Shown here: positions 3,266-48,305 of the stretch, one piece after another
Position numbering within the stretch: position 1 is the stretch's first letter
Layout of the letters: the number at the start of each line of letters is the position of its first letter
From: a virus
Lineage: Duplodnaviria > Caudoviricetes
Length of the DNA: 64,000 bases
Virus record (IMG/VR): IMGVR_UViG_3300037507_003370
Location: 142,292 to 206,291 of that record
Direction: 5' to 3' (one strand)
Made by a program: the position numbers and the translations under genes
Notes under the pieces: generated by a model
Databases searched by the model: none
What the model saw: the letters and a program-made list of their open reading frames with translations, nothing else
Told to the model about the DNA's origin: nothing

Positions 3266-3946
3266 TTATTTTTTCTTAACTAGATTTTTTAAACTATCTA
3301 TATTAGGGTATTCTTTTGTACATAATACACCATCCGCAAACCCATAATCAACAGCTTCTTTTGCGGATAATATCCAATCACATCTGTTTGCTAATTGAGA
3401 TTGAATATGTTTTTTCGCCATCATTTTTTTCCAATTTTTATCTTTTGCCATATCGCTATTCATGCACCTTTCAACATATATATCAATCATCTTATCACAT
3501 TCTTTTTCATTCCATTGAACACTTTCTGCCGCCGCTTTACTATGTTCGCTATCTAGGCTTATAGATCCATAATGTATCAATACATTCACATTTGGCATTA
3601 GTACTCTTAAGTCTGGCGCTTGTAAAATAATACTACTAGCAGACTGAGCTTTTGCGTAAGCTAAGATTATAGTTTTAGATTTTGATTCTTTGATCGTATC
3701 GTAAATACCTAAACAATCCTCCCAGTCTCCTCCTGGGATATGCATATGAATTAGAATAGGTTCATTTGAAAGTTGATTTAAGTATCTCATATTTTTTTCA
3801 AATACTATAGCAGACTTAAAATTAACCTCTTCGTTATCACTTTCATTTAGATCAGAATGGAGATATAATTCTCTATTTTTTAGATCTAGTCCATATGTAT
3901 GAATACAGTATAGGTCATGCTCTATAGAATTATTGGCTCGTGGCAT
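3266..3946 (-). CDS. clpP: ClpP-family serine protease subunit
   Basis: HIPGG, AQSAS (Ser), IHYG (His), RCDWILSAKEAVDYGFAD (Asp); catalytic triad intact. Confidence 0.88.
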   Translation of the reverse strand: MPRANNSIEHDLYCIHTYGLDLKNRELYLHSDLNESDNEEVNFKSAIVFEKNMRYLNQLSNEPILIHMHIPGGDWEDCLGIYDTIKESKSKTIILAYAKAQSASSIILQAPDLRVLMPNVNVLIHYGSISLDSEHSKAAAESVQWNEKECDKMIDIYVERCMNSDMAKDKNWKKMMAKKHIQSQLANRCDWILSAKEAVDYGFADGVLCTKEYPNIDSLKNLVKKK

Positions 3947-36880: not shown

Positions 36881-37150
36881 TAGGAGCGGTGGGAGTCGAA
36901 CCCACACTTGAAGGATTTTCTTACCACTATAACTTTTGTTACCATTTCTGTTTGTGGTCTGGACTTTATCTTAACCATAACTTTCGTTTTAGGTTCCTGC
37001 CGTCAAGTCTCTACACCTTCATATTTCTATGCTTGGCTCGGTATTAGCAGTTAAGCCTTCACCGAATTTGACAGGTTCTACATTAAAAGTTTCCCTTTAT
37101 GCACTCAAATTAGTTCAAGTCCTTTGTCTCTGCCTTTGGACTACACTCCC
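36881..37150 (-). tRNA. tRNA-Leu(UAA), split by a group I intron (exon 1 37150-37117, exon 2 36919-36881)
   Basis: Spliced 73 nt: acceptor GGGAGTG/CGCTCCT, A73, anticodon arm AAGGA-CTTAAAA-TCCTT, T-arm GTGGG-TTCGACT-CCCAC; CCA not encoded. Confidence 0.9.
36920..37116 (-). ncRNA. Group I self-splicing intron (197 nt, no ORF)
   Basis: P AAATTCGGTGAA, Q AATACCGAG, R GTGTAGAGACTTGACG, S AAGATAAAGTCC; U before the 5' splice site pairs with IGS GAGT; terminal G. Confidence 0.9.
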
Positions 37151-42382: not shown

Positions 42383-43111
42383 TTACTTATGTTTCCAAAT
42401 CGAAATATCATTATACTCATTTTTATGAAATCTAGTATTTATATGAATACCATAGTCAATATTATCTTTAAAATATTTAAATAATACATAATTAAAAATT
42501 GGCATATCTAAAGATATTTCTATATTTTTTGAAACTTGAGAATGATATTGTGTTAATTGTTCTAATAATCTAATACATATGTTATAGTCTCCACCAACTA
42601 TACCTGCATTTAGTAAAGTATGATCTCTATATTGATTTAATACTTCATCAAAATCTGATATGGTTATATATTTAAATTTTTTTTTCATATAAGTAGATAA
42701 AAGTTTGTCTTTATATTCACTACCACAATATAAAGTATTATTTTTTATATCATAGTTTTTTAACATAAGCACGTCGGTACTATCAACCATAAATAAATTT
42801 GAAAATTTATGTTTTTTTAAATACTTATAATAAACAAACCATCTATATGTTGTTGGAGTATATTCTTCATTGTTTTCAATTCTTACCCATAAACAACCAT
42901 CTATATTCGGAATATTATCAAAACAATCATGGAATACAACAATATTAGATCCATTTTTTAGAACACTATCAATTAGTGGAAGTATTAGAGTATAATCATT
43001 TTTCCAAAAATCTATCCTTTGATCATCTCTAACAACATGTTTTCTATAATCATTAAGCAATAAAGGATCAGGCGTTGAACAGAAATATGATGCTAAAACT
43101 GTATTTATCAT
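42383..43111 (-). CDS. Glycosyltransferase-like protein
   Basis: MVDSTDV, LLNAGIVGG, DMPIFN. Confidence 0.55.
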   Translation of the reverse strand: MINTVLASYFCSTPDPLLLNDYRKHVVRDDQRIDFWKNDYTLILPLIDSVLKNGSNIVVFHDCFDNIPNIDGCLWVRIENNEEYTPTTYRWFVYYKYLKKHKFSNLFMVDSTDVLMLKNYDIKNNTLYCGSEYKDKLLSTYMKKKFKYITISDFDEVLNQYRDHTLLNAGIVGGDYNICIRLLEQLTQYHSQVSKNIEISLDMPIFNYVLFKYFKDNIDYGIHINTRFHKNEYNDISIWKHK

Positions 43112-43785
43112 GGGATATGTAATATGTCTTCGGTTGTTCCGTTAAGTGTTTGAAAAATACTACAATTATCGTCAATTAAAATTTTAGGGTACCATTTATA
43201 AAAATTTTGTTTAACAATTTTTTGTTCAGAGTAATCTTCGACCTTTACAAAAGATAGGCACTCGCTATAAAATTTAAGCATTGATTCTTTTTTGCCGATA
43301 CACGCTCCAGCATTTAAATAACAAAAGGGTTCACGAAACCATTTTTTTTCATCGCTATAATCTTTAGGCCAACAATTTATTTCGGCATTAAACAGAATAT
43401 CACAATTTTTCAATAAAAACTTTTCTATAATTTCGCCCAAACAAAAAACAACAACATCTGAGGAATCCATACTGAGAACATAATCGGTCTGATTCGACTT
43501 TAAGTAATCTATTATTAGTGATATTTTGTGAATATTATTCCATTTTTTTATATCGGCTCCCATAACTGTGCATCTATTTTGAATTGAGTTCTCTAAACTC
43601 CCGACATCTTTATTGCAGTGTGATGATCCATTATTAAATGTGACTATTTGTAGATTATGAGGTATAAAAACATCGTTGTTACATAAATCTTTAATTCTTT
43701 GCCACAAAGGGGATTTTTGTGGTATTCCATGAGCATGAAAAATAGTTGGATTTGTATTATAGATTAGATTACAAAATTGTTTCAT
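43108..43785 (-). CDS. PLOD/LH3-glycosyltransferase-domain-like protein
   Basis: KI, LSMDSSDV, LFNAEINCWP, YLNAGACIG, SEQ, ILIDDNCSIFQTL. Confidence 0.7.
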   Translation of the reverse strand: MKQFCNLIYNTNPTIFHAHGIPQKSPLWQRIKDLCNNDVFIPHNLQIVTFNNGSSHCNKDVGSLENSIQNRCTVMGADIKKWNNIHKISLIIDYLKSNQTDYVLSMDSSDVVVFCLGEIIEKFLLKNCDILFNAEINCWPKDYSDEKKWFREPFCYLNAGACIGKKESMLKFYSECLSFVKVEDYSEQKIVKQNFYKWYPKILIDDNCSIFQTLNGTTEDILHIP

Positions 43786-43788
43786 AAA

Positions 43789-44634
43789 TTATTTAATGCT
43801 TTTTATATATACTGATAAATTATTTTTTGGATTCCAATTTAAAATGGTTTTTGTTTCATTATTTTCTGCCAGAGTAGTTGGTGCTTCTCCAACCAAATCT
43901 GGTTTGTATATTATATTATTGTATTGAAACATATCTACTACTTCAGATACGCTATAATTCTCACCTCTGCCTAATTCAAATTCAAATCCGTATTTGTGAT
44001 TTATTATAATTTTAATTATTGCATCACATACATCATCAACATGAGTAAAGTCACGGCGTTTAGATCCATCACCATAAATGATAAAAGGTAAATTGTTTTT
44101 ATAATTATATTTCCATTTACCAATTAATGTTCCATTATCATCCATCAATTCATTCGGTCCATACACATTATATAATCTAGCAATAGATGCTAATAAACTA
44201 AAATTTTGTTGATATAGTCTTATTATGTCTTCTCCAACATCTTTCGTAAAAGTATATGGATTACTAAATTTGCCGCTATGATGAGAACTTGTTCCAATAT
44301 AAACTATTGGAATACTATTTTGAGCAGCATACTTTGTAATATTATATGTCCCAAGAATGTTAGTATGGAAATATTCTTTATCGTCAATAAAAGATTGTTT
44401 TATCCTGGCCTTTGCTGCACAATGAACTATAGCATCAAACTTACCATATCTATGGTAATCTATGGTTGATATAATGTCATTCTTAATATATTCTATGCCT
44501 TCTGTGTGATTATTTTCTGATCCGGTAGAATAATTATCTATAGACACTACAGAACATCCTAAAGAATATAATCTTTTTCCAAGATTTGACCCCACAAATC
44601 CAGCACCTCCTGTGATAAGAATATTTTTATTCAT
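43789..44634 (-). CDS. NAD-dependent nucleotide-sugar epimerase/dehydratase (SDR)
   Basis: ITGGAGFVGS, HCAA, YTFTK (YxxxK), RLYNVYG, RDFTHVDD. Confidence 0.92.
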   Translation of the reverse strand: MNKNILITGGAGFVGSNLGKRLYSLGCSVVSIDNYSTGSENNHTEGIEYIKNDIISTIDYHRYGKFDAIVHCAAKARIKQSFIDDKEYFHTNILGTYNITKYAAQNSIPIVYIGTSSHHSGKFSNPYTFTKDVGEDIIRLYQQNFSLLASIARLYNVYGPNELMDDNGTLIGKWKYNYKNNLPFIIYGDGSKRRDFTHVDDVCDAIIKIIINHKYGFEFELGRGENYSVSEVVDMFQYNNIIYKPDLVGEAPTTLAENNETKTILNWNPKNNLSVYIKSIK

Positions 44635-44636
44635 AT

Positions 44637-45323
44637 TTAATTATCAATAAATTTTCTATTTGAATTTCTGTATTCGTTACCAATATATGTTGTAGATTTT
44701 GGCCCAGTCCATTCGTGATGACATAATGCTTTGTTTACTATAATCACTCTTTGTTGACTAGAAAGTTTTCTCTGAGGATGGTCTGCTGGCATAGACATGG
44801 TTCTTAATAATAAATAAAGTTCTAATATTGCTAATTTTTTTGTATAAAATAATTGATTCCCCCATGGACTTTCATCACACATTGAAAATATCTCTTTTTT
44901 TATACTATAGACTTTTTTCTTATTTACGTCTGGATATTCGTGTAAAAGCATCATATCTGCTGTAGGAAATTCTTTTTTTCCCTCAGATATTGTATTAAAT
45001 AATTCGTCTTTGTTTTTTATTAATGGAGTTATATCATCCTCCATAATAATTACTTCTTCATAATTATTCTCTAATAAGTGCTCATAGAGAAGGCAAAAAC
45101 TTGTAGCACATGCTATCTCTCCTTCGCTCAGTTGTCTGCCCATAAAACTTATTGCTAATTTTTTATCATATGGATATATAAATTTATTATTTGTTATATT
45201 TTTTCTATCATAACCTTTCCAAAAAACAATATCTAAATTTAGTTTATCTATCCATTCTTTCTGTATTAAAGATTTTCTTTCTGTTGCTCGTTCAAGATTA
45301 ATACAAAATATTGGAATATTCAT
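44637..45323 (-). CDS. GT25-like glycosyltransferase
   Basis: FCINLERATER, GEIACATS, IMEDD. Confidence 0.85.
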   Translation of the reverse strand: MNIPIFCINLERATERKSLIQKEWIDKLNLDIVFWKGYDRKNITNNKFIYPYDKKLAISFMGRQLSEGEIACATSFCLLYEHLLENNYEEVIIMEDDITPLIKNKDELFNTISEGKKEFPTADMMLLHEYPDVNKKKVYSIKKEIFSMCDESPWGNQLFYTKKLAILELYLLLRTMSMPADHPQRKLSSQQRVIIVNKALCHHEWTGPKSTTYIGNEYRNSNRKFIDN

Positions 45324-45326
45324 ATG

Positions 45327-46145
45327 TTAAAAATAATATTTATCTATCATATCTAAAAATAAATTTAGTCCCATAAATTCTTCAAACGTATTCTTTAGTC
45401 CCCACAAATGTAATATTTTATGTTCTTTTAGTCTGTGTCTTATTCCAATCTCACCTTTTGCTGTTATGGATCCTGGCACTAAAACTGGTAAATTTTGTTT
45501 ATTCATTTTTTTTGCAATAATCGAGGGTAATATATATTGCTCTAAAAATACTGATGTTTTCCAATTATATCCGTCTGTCTTTAGTGTTGATAAAAATTCG
45601 GTTATTTCATTATTATGATTGTTAATACCTGTTATTAGATGATCTATGCTGTTTTTAATAGTAATATAGTCCGTACCGCCAAAAATGCCAAAATTATAAC
45701 ATTGAGCAATATCATTATCTATATTAAACCACTCGTCTATTTTGTCTTTAGGCAACTTACTAAAAAAACAAGTTTTCATCCACGGTTCGTGATGCAAAGT
45801 TATAAAAGGTTCATTTTTATATGGCTGTATAATATCTTCTACTAAAAATAAATCTAAATCCACATGATAAAATGGCTCATTAACTAATAAACAAGAAACA
45901 AGTTTAGTAACAGACCAAAAGTCAAAAGTATTTGGTAATTCATAATCTTTTAAATCTATTATTCTTATATCATCATATGGTATGTGTTTAAAATAAGGTA
46001 GGCTTTTTGTATCAGTATATAATATGGTAGTATATTGATGCTTTTTTAAGAACTTGTTTGATAATTCTGCTTGCTTACTTGCTGCTGAAATATTAGCTCT
46101 GATGCTAGATGTATCGTTAGGGAAAAAGCTATGTATTGTTATCAT
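45327..46145 (-). CDS. Glycosyltransferase-like protein (DUF6734-like)
   Basis: LYTD, FWSVTK, FYHVDLD, NFGIFGG, FLEQ, HLWG. Confidence 0.6.
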   Translation of the reverse strand: MITIHSFFPNDTSSIRANISAASKQAELSNKFLKKHQYTTILYTDTKSLPYFKHIPYDDIRIIDLKDYELPNTFDFWSVTKLVSCLLVNEPFYHVDLDLFLVEDIIQPYKNEPFITLHHEPWMKTCFFSKLPKDKIDEWFNIDNDIAQCYNFGIFGGTDYITIKNSIDHLITGINNHNNEITEFLSTLKTDGYNWKTSVFLEQYILPSIIAKKMNKQNLPVLVPGSITAKGEIGIRHRLKEHKILHLWGLKNTFEEFMGLNLFLDMIDKYYF

Positions 46146-46491
46146 TTTGCTGGTTCCTATTTTTTGCCATGATTAAATAGTTTACAGCCTTAATTACACC
46201 GGTTAAATTGTCATCAAGTTTACCTATGCCAGTATTACACCTATCACAGAGCCAACCTCTAAAAGAATCATCAGAATGATCGTGATCCAAGCACCATTTT
46301 AATGGTATTTTTTTACAACACTCACAAAGTTCTGGTTTTGGTGGTGCTTTTTTATGAAGTTTACCACGAACTTTAGTTTGTTTTTTTACACACTTTTTGC
46401 ATCTGCTATCCAGATTGTCTTTATACATAGTGTGTTTAGGAAAACTTCCTTTGTTTTTCCTTTTACCGCAATATGAACAAATTTTTCTCAT
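46129..46491 (-). CDS. Endonuclease VII-like nuclease
   Basis: CECC..LDHDH...RGWLCDRCNTGIG. Confidence 0.88.
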   Translation of the reverse strand: MRKICSYCGKRKNKGSFPKHTMYKDNLDSRCKKCVKKQTKVRGKLHKKAPPKPELCECCKKIPLKWCLDHDHSDDSFRGWLCDRCNTGIGKLDDNLTGVIKAVNYLIMAKNRNQQNDNNT

Positions 46492-46499
46492 AATATAAG

Positions 46500-46849
46500 T
46501 GGACTAGAGGGGAGTCGAACCCCTGTCCAGAATAAACATCAATATAAACTTCTACATCGTTAGTCTATTGTAATTCGGACACTAGACAAACCTAGAAGAA
46601 ATTATCTTCATCAGATCGGTTACGATCATTGTCTATGTTTTCGGGTTAGACTTCCTTATCAGATTTATCTGAGTCAACATGATTGGGTAATAAGGCCCAT
46701 ATAGCCCCACTCGTACCTAATTAATTAGGCAGCGAGAGCGAGATTTACTTCGCCAATTAACATTTTTTGAATAACTTTTATACTGGCCCGTTATTCAACC
46801 AGTCGATGCCGTCTATATCTATTTTACCTGTCGATACCTTTACTAGCCC
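46500..46849 (-). ncRNA. ssrA: tmRNA, one-piece, tag (A)GEVNLALAA*
   Basis: Acceptor GGGCTAG/CTAGTCC with G3-U70 and A discriminator; 5' GGTATCGAC; T-arm GGGGTTCGACTCCCC; tag ORF 46754-46725; CCA not encoded. Confidence 0.93.
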
Positions 46850-47026
46850 TTAGTTTTCCAGTTCAATCAATCTATCGTGTAGATTACTGACCATTTTTGT
46901 ATGTATCATATCGTTGATCTTATTAACTTCTTTAACAGCCTCCAAAGATTCTGAATGAATAACATTCATTGTTAGTGAAGCAAATAAAACTGATAATAGA
47001 CATATAAACAGAAGTCTGTATTTCAT
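46850..47026 (-). CDS. Small membrane/secreted protein whose stop abuts the tmRNA 5' end
   Basis: 58 aa MKYRLLFICLLSVLFASL..., translated by hand. Confidence 0.5.
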   Translation of the reverse strand: MKYRLLFICLLSVLFASLTMNVIHSESLEAVKEVNKINDMIHTKMVSNLHDRLIELEN

Positions 47027-47086
47027 GATAATCTTTCTTTTAGGCGGGTTAGTTACTTAACTAATGTAAAGGAAGGTCACTATGTT

Positions 47087-47546
47087 TTACACCATTCCGT
47101 TTTTAATCATATTCAGATACTCTTTTTTGCTTATCCAAATATCGTCATTTTGATACCTTTTTGACAATAATGAACGAATCTTTTTTCTTCCAACATAGCA
47201 TGGTTGAAACCTTAAAGATTGTCCACTAAAATAGCATTTCCTATTAAACAAACAATATTTTAATGTCCATTGTCTATCATGTGTAATTTCAGAAATCATT
47301 TTTGATTGGTTCTCTAGTTTTAATATCGTACTTAGTGCCTGAAGTATATGTTTGTTTTGATAGTCTTTTAACTTCTTCCATCAATTTCTTCAGTTCATCA
47401 TTATCAACTGGCGAAGTTATGCTATTAACTATATGATGTAGTTGATTGATTTTTTCAAGAAATATCCAATTAAAACCAACTGACAAAACTAATAGACCAA
47501 CTAAAAGAGTTACTATTGGCATACAGCATAATGAACGATGAGTCAT
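47087..47546 (-). other. Two small hypothetical CDS (47087..47299, 47289..47546)
   Basis: Overlapping co-oriented ORFs. Confidence 0.5.
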
Positions 47547-47620
47547 AAACTTTCCTTATTTTTGATATGATTAGTGTCCACGATATAATAGTTTCACTGT
47601 TATCAAAAGCAAGTTTAAAA

Positions 47621-47696
47621 TAGGGCGAGTAGGAGTCGAACCTACCTATGAACACCTTATAAGAGTGTCGGATGCAACCGGCTTACCTTCCGCCCC
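47621..47696 (-). tRNA. tRNA-Ile(UAU) with atypical D-arm
   Basis: Acceptor GGGGCGG/TCGCCCT, A73, anticodon arm ACACT-CTTATAA-GGTGT, T-arm GTAGG-TTCGACT-CCTAC. Confidence 0.8.
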
Positions 47697-47729
47697 GTCT
47701 TGTTAAAGATCAATCACCGTCCTGCCACC

Positions 47730-47757
47730 ATTATATCATCGTCATCCATCTTGTCAA
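47730..47757 (-). promoter_or_regulatory. Promoter TTGACA-N16-TATAAT for tRNA-Ile
   Basis: Consensus hexamers, extended -10 TG, ~30 nt upstream of the tRNA. Confidence 0.85.
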
Positions 47758-47765
47758 GACTTGAA

Positions 47766-48305
47766 TTATTTTGCGAGATGGCTTGTATATTTGTCGCCCT
47801 CTAATAAACGGTAATAATGTAGTACATAAAAACCTTGTGCTACAATACATTTTTTACCAAGAGAATTTACTTTATTATAAAATAATCTATCAACGTGTAA
47901 TATTCCCTTTTCAAAACCACCTACTTCTTTCCATACTCTTTTTTTAAATGAAAAATAAAATCCAGATAAAAAAGTTCCAGTCATCAGTTTTGTAGAATAT
48001 TGATTTTTATCAAAGAGGTCTTGAGCATATTTTTTATGCTTTATAATATTTTTTTCATTATACATATCTTTGCAAACTTGATCAATATTGGACGTAGCCG
48101 CTCTATTAGTTAGACAAGTAACTATCCCAACATCTTTATTTTGATCTAAAATAGAACCCCATATTTCTCCCCAATTCAGATGTAACTGCATTATATCTCC
48201 ATCAGAAAATGTTATCCAATCATCGTCATCTGGAACAAGACTACAATAATGATTATAGGCTTCTCCTAAGTCACCTTTTACGAAAGGAGTAAAATAATAT
48301 ATCAT
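47766..48305 (-). CDS. GT-A glycosyltransferase-like protein
   Basis: LGEAYN, TFSDGD, VGGFEKG, VLHYYR. Confidence 0.65.
   Translation of the reverse strand: MIYYFTPFVKGDLGEAYNHYCSLVPDDDDWITFSDGDIMQLHLNWGEIWGSILDQNKDVGIVTCLTNRAATSNIDQVCKDMYNEKNIIKHKKYAQDLFDKNQYSTKLMTGTFLSGFYFSFKKRVWKEVGGFEKGILHVDRLFYNKVNSLGKKCIVAQGFYVLHYYRLLEGDKYTSHLAK

Follow-up and report, generated by a model that had tools for sequence, protein, structure and literature searches.

The DNA analysed is a 64,000-nt stretch of a viral genome (hereafter the window), with a GC content of about 30% and genes almost all on the minus strand. The sole tmRNA that ARAGORN found lies at 46499-46849 (-) of the window and has the tag GEVNLALAA*. 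The Rfam scan gave a match to RF00023 at 46497-46849 (-) with a score of 95.7 bits (gathering score, 47 bits) and an E-value of 4.6e-36; the match spans model positions 1-374 of 374 and is not truncated. Both programs, which had been proposed as a check on the original prediction of a complete phage-encoded tmRNA, call the gene where it had been predicted and place it on the minus strand, a detail missing from the prediction; covariation among relatives agrees with them. The E-value and the covariation exclude a chance match, and the comparison of the sequences supports the identity as tmRNA with high confidence. The parts of the molecule named in the prediction could be read in the sequence: tRNA-Ala-like ends with a G3.U70 pair, UUAAUU directly 5′ of the resume codon GGC (46754-46752), nine sense codons followed by UAA that encode the tag (A)GEVNLALAA, which is also the ARAGORN tag, and the UAA within the stem of a hairpin (nt 114-140). 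As had also been noted, the stop codon of the upstream ORF (TAA, 46852-46850) touches G1 of the tmRNA (46849). The features of the locus are listed in Table 1.

Table 1. Features of the tmRNA locus in the window, from upstream to downstream on the minus strand; tmRNA nucleotide (nt) n is window position 46850-n.
Feature	Position	Strand	Basis
Sigma-70-type promoter: TTGACA, 16 nt, TG-TATAAT	47730-47757	-	12/12 match
tRNA-Ile(UAU), first gene of the tmRNA transcription unit, CCA not encoded	47621-47696	-	ARAGORN, sequence
Small ORF, 58 aa, hydrophobic N-terminus, TAA stop adjoining tmRNA G1	46850-47026	-	Sequence, homologues
One-piece tmRNA (ssrA), 350 nt, from G1 (46849) to discriminator A (46500)	46500-46849	-	ARAGORN, Rfam, covariation in relatives
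Acceptor stem 5′ strand GGGCUAG, nt 1-7, with G3 of the G3.U70 alanine identity pair	46843-46849	-	Covariation
Helix 2 5′ strand, nt 20-46, joining the tRNA-like and mRNA-like parts	46804-46830	-	RNAalifold
PK1, nt 47-84: stem 1 ACUGG/CCAGU, stem 2 UUGAAUAAC/GUUAUUC.AA	46766-46803	-	Covariation
Tag frame: resume GGC, GEVNLALAA, stop UAA	46725-46754	-	ARAGORN, 41 copies
Helix 5 hairpin, nt 114-140, stop codon in stem	46710-46736	-	Folding and covariation
PK2, nt 139-172	46678-46711	-	Crossing covarying helices
Rest of structured body (PK3/PK4 zone)	46560-46677	-	RNAalifold, type I and type II sub-alignments
Helix 2 3′ strand, nt 291-322, with conserved UGUAGA bulge region	46528-46559	-	RNAalifold, covariation
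T-arm, nt 326-342: 5-bp stem AGGGG/CCCCU, loop UUCGACU	46508-46524	-	Covariation
Acceptor stem 3′ strand CUAGUCC, nt 343-349, plus discriminator A, nt 350	46500-46507	-	Sequence
Endonuclease VII-like gene, ATG 8 nt past the tmRNA discriminator	46129-46491	-	Pfam PF02945, PHROG

Searches with PHROGs and Pfam identified rIIA, an ATP-dependent DNA ligase, endonuclease VII, glycosyltransferases and a sigma-like factor in the window, and rIIA, the ligase and endonuclease VII, together with hundreds of related viral contigs, bear out that the tmRNA is phage-encoded. Phage genes flank it on either side, and its full length and constant slot among diverged phages set it apart from a host gene or an att-site remnant. 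A blastn search of positions 46300-47900 against 50,697 phage records (INPHARED) gave no DNA match, and the best amino-acid identity of rIIA and the ligase to cultured phages was 31-32%, so that no cultured relative or host could be borrowed. A ligase-based scan of IMG/VR retrieved 313 related stretches; the CheckV-complete relatives are 152-224 kb long. The Rfam scan of the whole window also returned a group I intron match at 36938-37126 (-) (RF00028, 60 bits, E-value 1e-12).

The tmRNA was detected by ARAGORN or an nhmmer profile in 67 of 98 loci of this clade, on the ligase strand and upstream of the endonuclease VII and ligase genes, and in 40 of the 42 loci having at least 3.5 kb upstream of the ligase. 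The two exceptions (L083 and L110), as well as a shorter fragment (L046), have neither tmRNA nor endonuclease VII near the ligase. The four long relatives examined for it, three of them CheckV-complete, all carry the tmRNA, one copy being cut by the contig end. A 152-kb relative (G013) that had been considered as tmRNA-free was rejected as such, since its contig ends inside the tmRNA gene. Identity in relatives is 81-84% for the tmRNA versus about 74% for ligase DNA. Taken together, the tmRNA is nearly universal in this clade, which comprises at least 313 contigs, with L046, L083 and L110 leaving universality unproven.

The structure was evaluated on an alignment (A2) of 41 distinct tmRNA copies, which split into type I, to which the window's copy belongs, and type II; homology between the two types extends over the 5′ part, the tag and the 3′ end, but their bodies are strongly divergent. 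RNAalifold on A2 recovered the acceptor stem, three segments of helix 2 (columns 20-26, 35-41 and 43-48), PK1 stem 2 and the T-arm, and compensatory changes were present in 30 of the 46 pairs. For the tested structure, PK1 stem 1 was put in and one helix, between the resume codon and the tag end, was taken out because it did not covary. The 45 pairs in seven helices of this structure were 97.4% paired over the 41 copies, and compensatory changes, in which both sides had changed, were seen in 34 of them. None of 500 shuffles matched the observed pairing and compensation values, and sliding the partners by 1-3 columns as a control lowered pairing to 40-45%.

The first three acceptor pairs (G1-C, G2-C and G3.U) were unchanged in 41/41 copies, which upholds the alanine-type ends of the original prediction, and pairs 4-6 covary (CG/GC/UA and others), the forms seen being GGGCUAG, GGGCGAG, GGGUGCG, GGGGGCG, GGGCCGG and GGGGACG. 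All copies terminate in UCCA. The T-stem has compensatory changes in all five pairs and is 99% paired across relatives. The anticodon arm is absent, and in its place is the long helix 2, with compensatory changes in 15 of 19 pairs. PK1, located just 5′ of the resume codon, consists of two crossing stems with 14 pairs, 11 of them compensated (4/5 in stem 1 and 7/9 in stem 2), both stems being 95-97% paired. The helix 5 hairpin forms in every tested variant and its pairs covary within type I. In PK2, a hairpin (nt 139-146/154-161) presents a loop whose nt 149-153 pair with nt 168-172, and these crossing helices covary in both tmRNA types. In the PK3/PK4 zone, RNAalifold on the sub-alignments gave four or five conserved covarying hairpins, crossing pairs not being demonstrated there. 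The best conserved part of the tmRNA is the tRNA-like domain.

The tag frame, which in the window ends with UAA at 46727-46725 after nine sense codons, was open in 41/41 copies, and the resume codon GGC was unchanged in 41/41. The copies encode 12 peptide variants, which differ in what precedes LALAA (GEVN-, GEVT-, GEVST-, GEVTLT-, GETQ-, GTNQ-, GVNQ-, GNTQ-, GKTQ-, GTTQ-, GSHQ- and GNNQ-). The LALAA peptide was constant in the 41 copies despite synonymous codon changes (Leu CUC/UUA, Ala GCU/GCA/GCC, Leu CUC/CUU, Ala GCC/GCU), the tag length differed by 3 or 6 nt only, and the stop codon, UAA or UGA, lay in the hairpin in 41/41 copies. Judged from the alignment, this pattern is the signature of a translated tag, and purifying selection acts on the helices and the tag frame throughout a broad clade of related phages.

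A different function to be weighed is that the RNA mainly titrates host SmpB and so blocks host trans-translation, a mode of action that has been put forward for the TLD-only RNA of mycobacteriophage DS6A (PMC4131195); the high conservation of the tRNA-like domain would suit it. However, titration needs no tag, and the resume codon, the frame, LALAA, the stop in its hairpin, PK1 and PK2 are all kept, with synonymous and compensatory changes in these elements. The translated-tag signature argues against titration and equally against a role in processing only, which is taken up below. Because selection acts on both the tag and the tRNA-like part, real tagging is favoured over mere SmpB titration, which we consider highly improbable.

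ARAGORN is blind to a subgroup of copies with the tags GEVTLALAA, GEVSTLALAA and GEVTLTLALAA, to which Rfam gives 93-98 bits; the overlooked copies are those of L001, L007, L008, L010, L015, L018 and L019. Phage tmRNAs will thus be undercounted in surveys using ARAGORN only.

The genes on both sides of the tmRNA are closely packed. Homologues of the 58-aa ORF precede the tmRNA in 20 related loci and keep their C-terminus through synonymous changes, indicating that this ORF is a real gene; in the distinct copies examined, the gap between such a homologue and the tmRNA is mostly 0 nt, and 4 nt in two. An upstream stop codon directly adjoins G1 in 12 of 40 distinct copies, including copies of both tmRNA types. 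On the other side, the ATG of endonuclease VII lies 2-9 nt past the discriminator in most relatives, with no Shine-Dalgarno motif between. Endonuclease VII belongs to the core genes of the clade (70 of 98 loci have it) and usually lies immediately upstream of the ligase, within about 0.2-0.3 kb of it in most relatives. In the window a 3.8-kb sugar-enzyme module lies between the two genes (42383-46145 (-); PLOD-type GT, SDR epimerase, GT25 and DUF6734), and given the short distance in most relatives it looks like a lineage-specific insertion. The epimerase matched viral clusters only in the protein atlas and gave no host hint.

The promoter listed in Table 1 is the sole 12/12 sigma-70 match nearby and lies about 880 nt upstream of the tmRNA, before tRNA-Ile. 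The promoter scan found no promoter-like site on the minus strand in about 290 nt upstream of the tmRNA, and further upstream on that strand it gave, besides the 12/12 site, weaker 9/12 matches only. No minus-strand terminator is predicted downstream of the promoter, which likely starts a transcript carrying tRNA-Ile, three small ORFs and the tmRNA. In relatives, tRNA-Ile(UAU) is also found upstream of the tmRNA, typically some 0.8 kb away (range 0.2-1.4 kb). The tmRNA has a promoter of its own in many relatives, an extended -10 box (TGnTATAAT-like) placed 5-7 nt ahead of G1. The original prediction had held that the RNA must be processed from a longer transcript. This stands for the phage studied here, with spacers of 0 and 8 nt and no near promoter, but not as a rule of the family, because of the many relatives with a -10 box right before G1.

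Such tight packing raises the question of whether the tRNA-like ends serve chiefly to recruit RNase P and RNase Z, which would cleave a polycistronic transcript precisely behind the upstream stop codon and again 2-9 nt ahead of the endonuclease VII start, with ribosome rescue secondary or lost. The abutting stop codons and the nearby endonuclease VII start codons lacking a Shine-Dalgarno motif are in favour of this explanation. Yet a minimal tRNA-like element would suffice for it, and a 240-nt mRNA-like body and the tag are conserved; moreover, many of the relatives have a promoter right before G1 and other genes downstream. A role mainly in processing is very unlikely.

On a tree of the ligase, the tmRNA type label changes four times, at least three of these changes being forced by well-supported branches, and the window, with its type I tmRNA, groups with the type II carriers L043 and L044 (99% SH-aLRT). 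Two copies are mosaics: in L105:6174-6521 a type I body is combined with the acceptor GGGGGCG and a differing T-arm, and in L078:3089-3439 the body is again of type I but the T-arm is one that other copies carry only when they are of type II. The mosaics point to recombination breakpoints inside the 3′ end of the tmRNA, and together with the type changes on the ligase tree they show repeated recombination of the tmRNA slot among these phages.

A more speculative proposal, which we hold to be doubtful, is that the locus is an exchangeable slot with two jobs, in which two deeply diverged alleles are traded and the tRNA-like ends are cutting marks that couple processing, rescue and resolvase expression. 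If so, co-infecting phages would trade alleles whose acceptor and T-arm ends can be swapped, and the trade might match the tmRNA to the SmpB and AlaRS of different hosts or cause different tags to be written. The cuts would trim the upstream mRNA at its stop codon and free a nearly leaderless endonuclease VII mRNA.

A search with PF01668 did not find SmpB in the four relatives G001-G004, of which three are CheckV-complete, and the same search found SmpB in 10 control bacteria. The bases following discriminator A 46500 are CUU, so CCA is not encoded in the window, and CCA was encoded in none of the copies. These two results imply that host factors are needed, consistent with the earlier claim that the RNA requires SmpB and CCA addition. 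On the established tmRNA pathway, RNase P, the 3′ endonuclease, the CCA-adding enzyme, AlaRS, EF-Tu, SmpB and the tag-reading proteases would all come from the host; compatibility with host SmpB and AlaRS is assumed. The window also contains a ClpP-family ORF at 3266-3946 (-) (Pfam CLP_protease, 58.9 bits), with 60-72% identity in four CheckV-complete relatives. It was rejected as a partner of the tmRNA, as its best PHROG matches are head-maturation proteases and it is present wherever checkable, so that no specific tie between ClpP and the tmRNA is demonstrable.

A search with the exact 3′ 24-mer of the tmRNA yielded 19 viral contigs, 15 of which have a full-length Rfam tmRNA match. Twelve of these 15 matches are the window's kind of tmRNA, and among those with sufficient flanking sequence most have tRNA-Ile(UAU) upstream; the other three (L006, L009 and L012) are a different tmRNA with the tag ANDNLAYAA and scores of 130-132 bits. 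The latter tmRNAs (L006:100-438, L009:100-438 and L012:90-428, on IMG/VR contigs of 101-156 kb) resemble those of Lachnospiraceae and have tRNA-like ends in common with the window's gene. They are probably separate phage-borne tmRNAs, carried by phages of Lachnospiraceae-like hosts.

The same 24-mer occurs in 22 bacterial genomes, mostly Lachnospiraceae, in Lachnospiraceae-type tmRNAs with other tags (AEENLAYAA and similar) and other bodies. The inference of a Lachnospiraceae host from this match was rejected, as tags and bodies differ and acceptor stems vary freely within the clade, and we read the shared 24-mer as a coincidence in a small sequence space that carries no host signal. In the Lachnospiraceae MAG behind one of the matches (L020), a second full-model tmRNA match (G007:C117:162-476, 79.5 bits) was seen besides the main one (149 bits); this weaker match could represent an additional ssrA copy borne by a mobile element. 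Two bins labelled 'Bacteroidaceae/Prevotella' (L036 and L038) have the same tmRNA tag as an Oscillospiraceae match (L035).

The original prediction had further suggested that the host might be inferred by comparing the tag with candidate host tags. The form of the phage tag, with a Gly resume codon and nine residues, is like that of Bacteroidota tags. However, Shine-Dalgarno motifs precede 39 of 91 minus-strand ORFs in the window, versus 6.8% of random positions, and five TTGACA/TATAAT promoters were found in the window, all on the coding strand. Bacteroidota expression signals are unlike this usage. These signals speak against the Bacteroidota host that the tag form would suggest, and the comparison of tags did not deliver the host inference expected of it.

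A further possibility is that the phage tmRNA competes with the host tmRNA and replaces the host tag by a short phage tag (G-x-x-N/Q-LALAA). Such rewriting would alter recognition by adaptors and proteases, for example by evading an SspB-type adaptor while keeping the LAA degron. The first four residues vary freely among the 12 variants around a constant LALAA, the Shine-Dalgarno and TTGACA/TATAAT signals suggest that the host tag may be of another style, and two tmRNA types are swapped between close relatives, all of which would fit. Against it, no difference from a host tag is shown, and the variation at the N-terminus of the tag could be neutral. Tag rewriting, which we judge quite unlikely, is compatible with plain rescue and not exclusive of it.

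The reading that we prefer, with a probability of roughly 0.82, is that a large uncultured phage carries here a tmRNA gene that is in one piece and works. According to this model, the early-type promoter at 47757 would drive a single transcript containing tRNA-Ile, three small ORFs and the tmRNA. The 5′ end of the tmRNA would be cut by host RNase P directly past the stop of the preceding ORF, an RNase Z/BN-type 3′ endonuclease of the host would cut after A350, and the 3′ end would be completed by the host CCA-adding enzyme. The mature RNA would be charged by host AlaRS through G3.U70 and delivered by host SmpB and EF-Tu to ribosomes stalled on broken mRNAs. Translation would resume at GGC and add (A)GEVNLALAA, an LAA-type degron for ClpXP-like proteases. 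The phage would probably gain extra ribosome rescue and recycling of truncated proteins during the destruction of host mRNA and falling host ssrA expression; this benefit is the least certain step, a conjecture as for all published phage tmRNAs. The purpose given in the original prediction, continued rescue after host RNA decay or defence-induced mRNA cleavage, is likewise conjectural.

The published cases of phage tmRNAs are mostly single genomes. The clade described here is a natural comparative set, with 41 distinct copies, 12 tag variants and two exchanged types, and it includes operon-embedded copies as well as copies with their own promoter. A literature search found no publication on the tmRNA family of this clade.

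Compared with bacterial SsrA (RF00023), the phage RNA has the same acceptor with G3.U70, T-arm, helix 2 and PK1 before the resume codon, a likewise short, ALAA-terminated tag whose stop codon falls within helix 5, and beyond it a structured body with a knot at PK2. The bacterial resume codon is more usually Ala, whereas that of the phage tmRNA is Gly (GGC). In addition, the phage copy has no adjacent smpB, none having been found elsewhere in the genomes of the relatives, CCA is not encoded, and the window's gene is squeezed between protein genes with spacers of 0 and 8 nt. The tRNA cluster of phage T4 offers another parallel. There, host RNase P and 3′ enzymes excise stable RNAs from an early transcript of greater length, and some RNAs of the cluster lack an encoded CCA and rely on its addition by the host. 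The locus is likened to this cluster, on established knowledge, in that its RNA would be cut from a longer transcript and depend on host CCA addition; it differs in that T4 has no tmRNA and in that the RNA here is directly flanked by protein genes, outside any RNA-only cluster.

That tmRNA occurs in some phages, as stated in the original prediction, is borne out by the literature. It has been described in eight Bxz1-type mycobacteriophages and Bacillus phage G (PMC4131195), in huge phages, some of which also have SmpB (PMC7162821), and, as a two-piece tmRNA with a glutamine riboswitch, in the Methylophilales phage Melnitz and pelagimyophages, in a study that counted a tmRNA in 402 of 18,146 phage genomes (PMC9004378). 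The present gene resembles these published cases in being a complete ssrA in a large lytic-type phage without integrase context and in the proposed upkeep of the hijacked translation machinery. Unlike the RNA of Melnitz and the pelagimyophages, the window's tmRNA is in one piece, and the SmpB carried by some huge phages was not found in the four relatives searched from this clade. In contrast to the published phage tmRNAs, the gene is near-universal in its clade and exists as two exchanged types. The current picture of trans-translation is unchanged by these results; phage tmRNAs are already known, and the additions are near-universality in a large uncultured clade, direct evidence of selection on the tag, exchange of types and tight packing.
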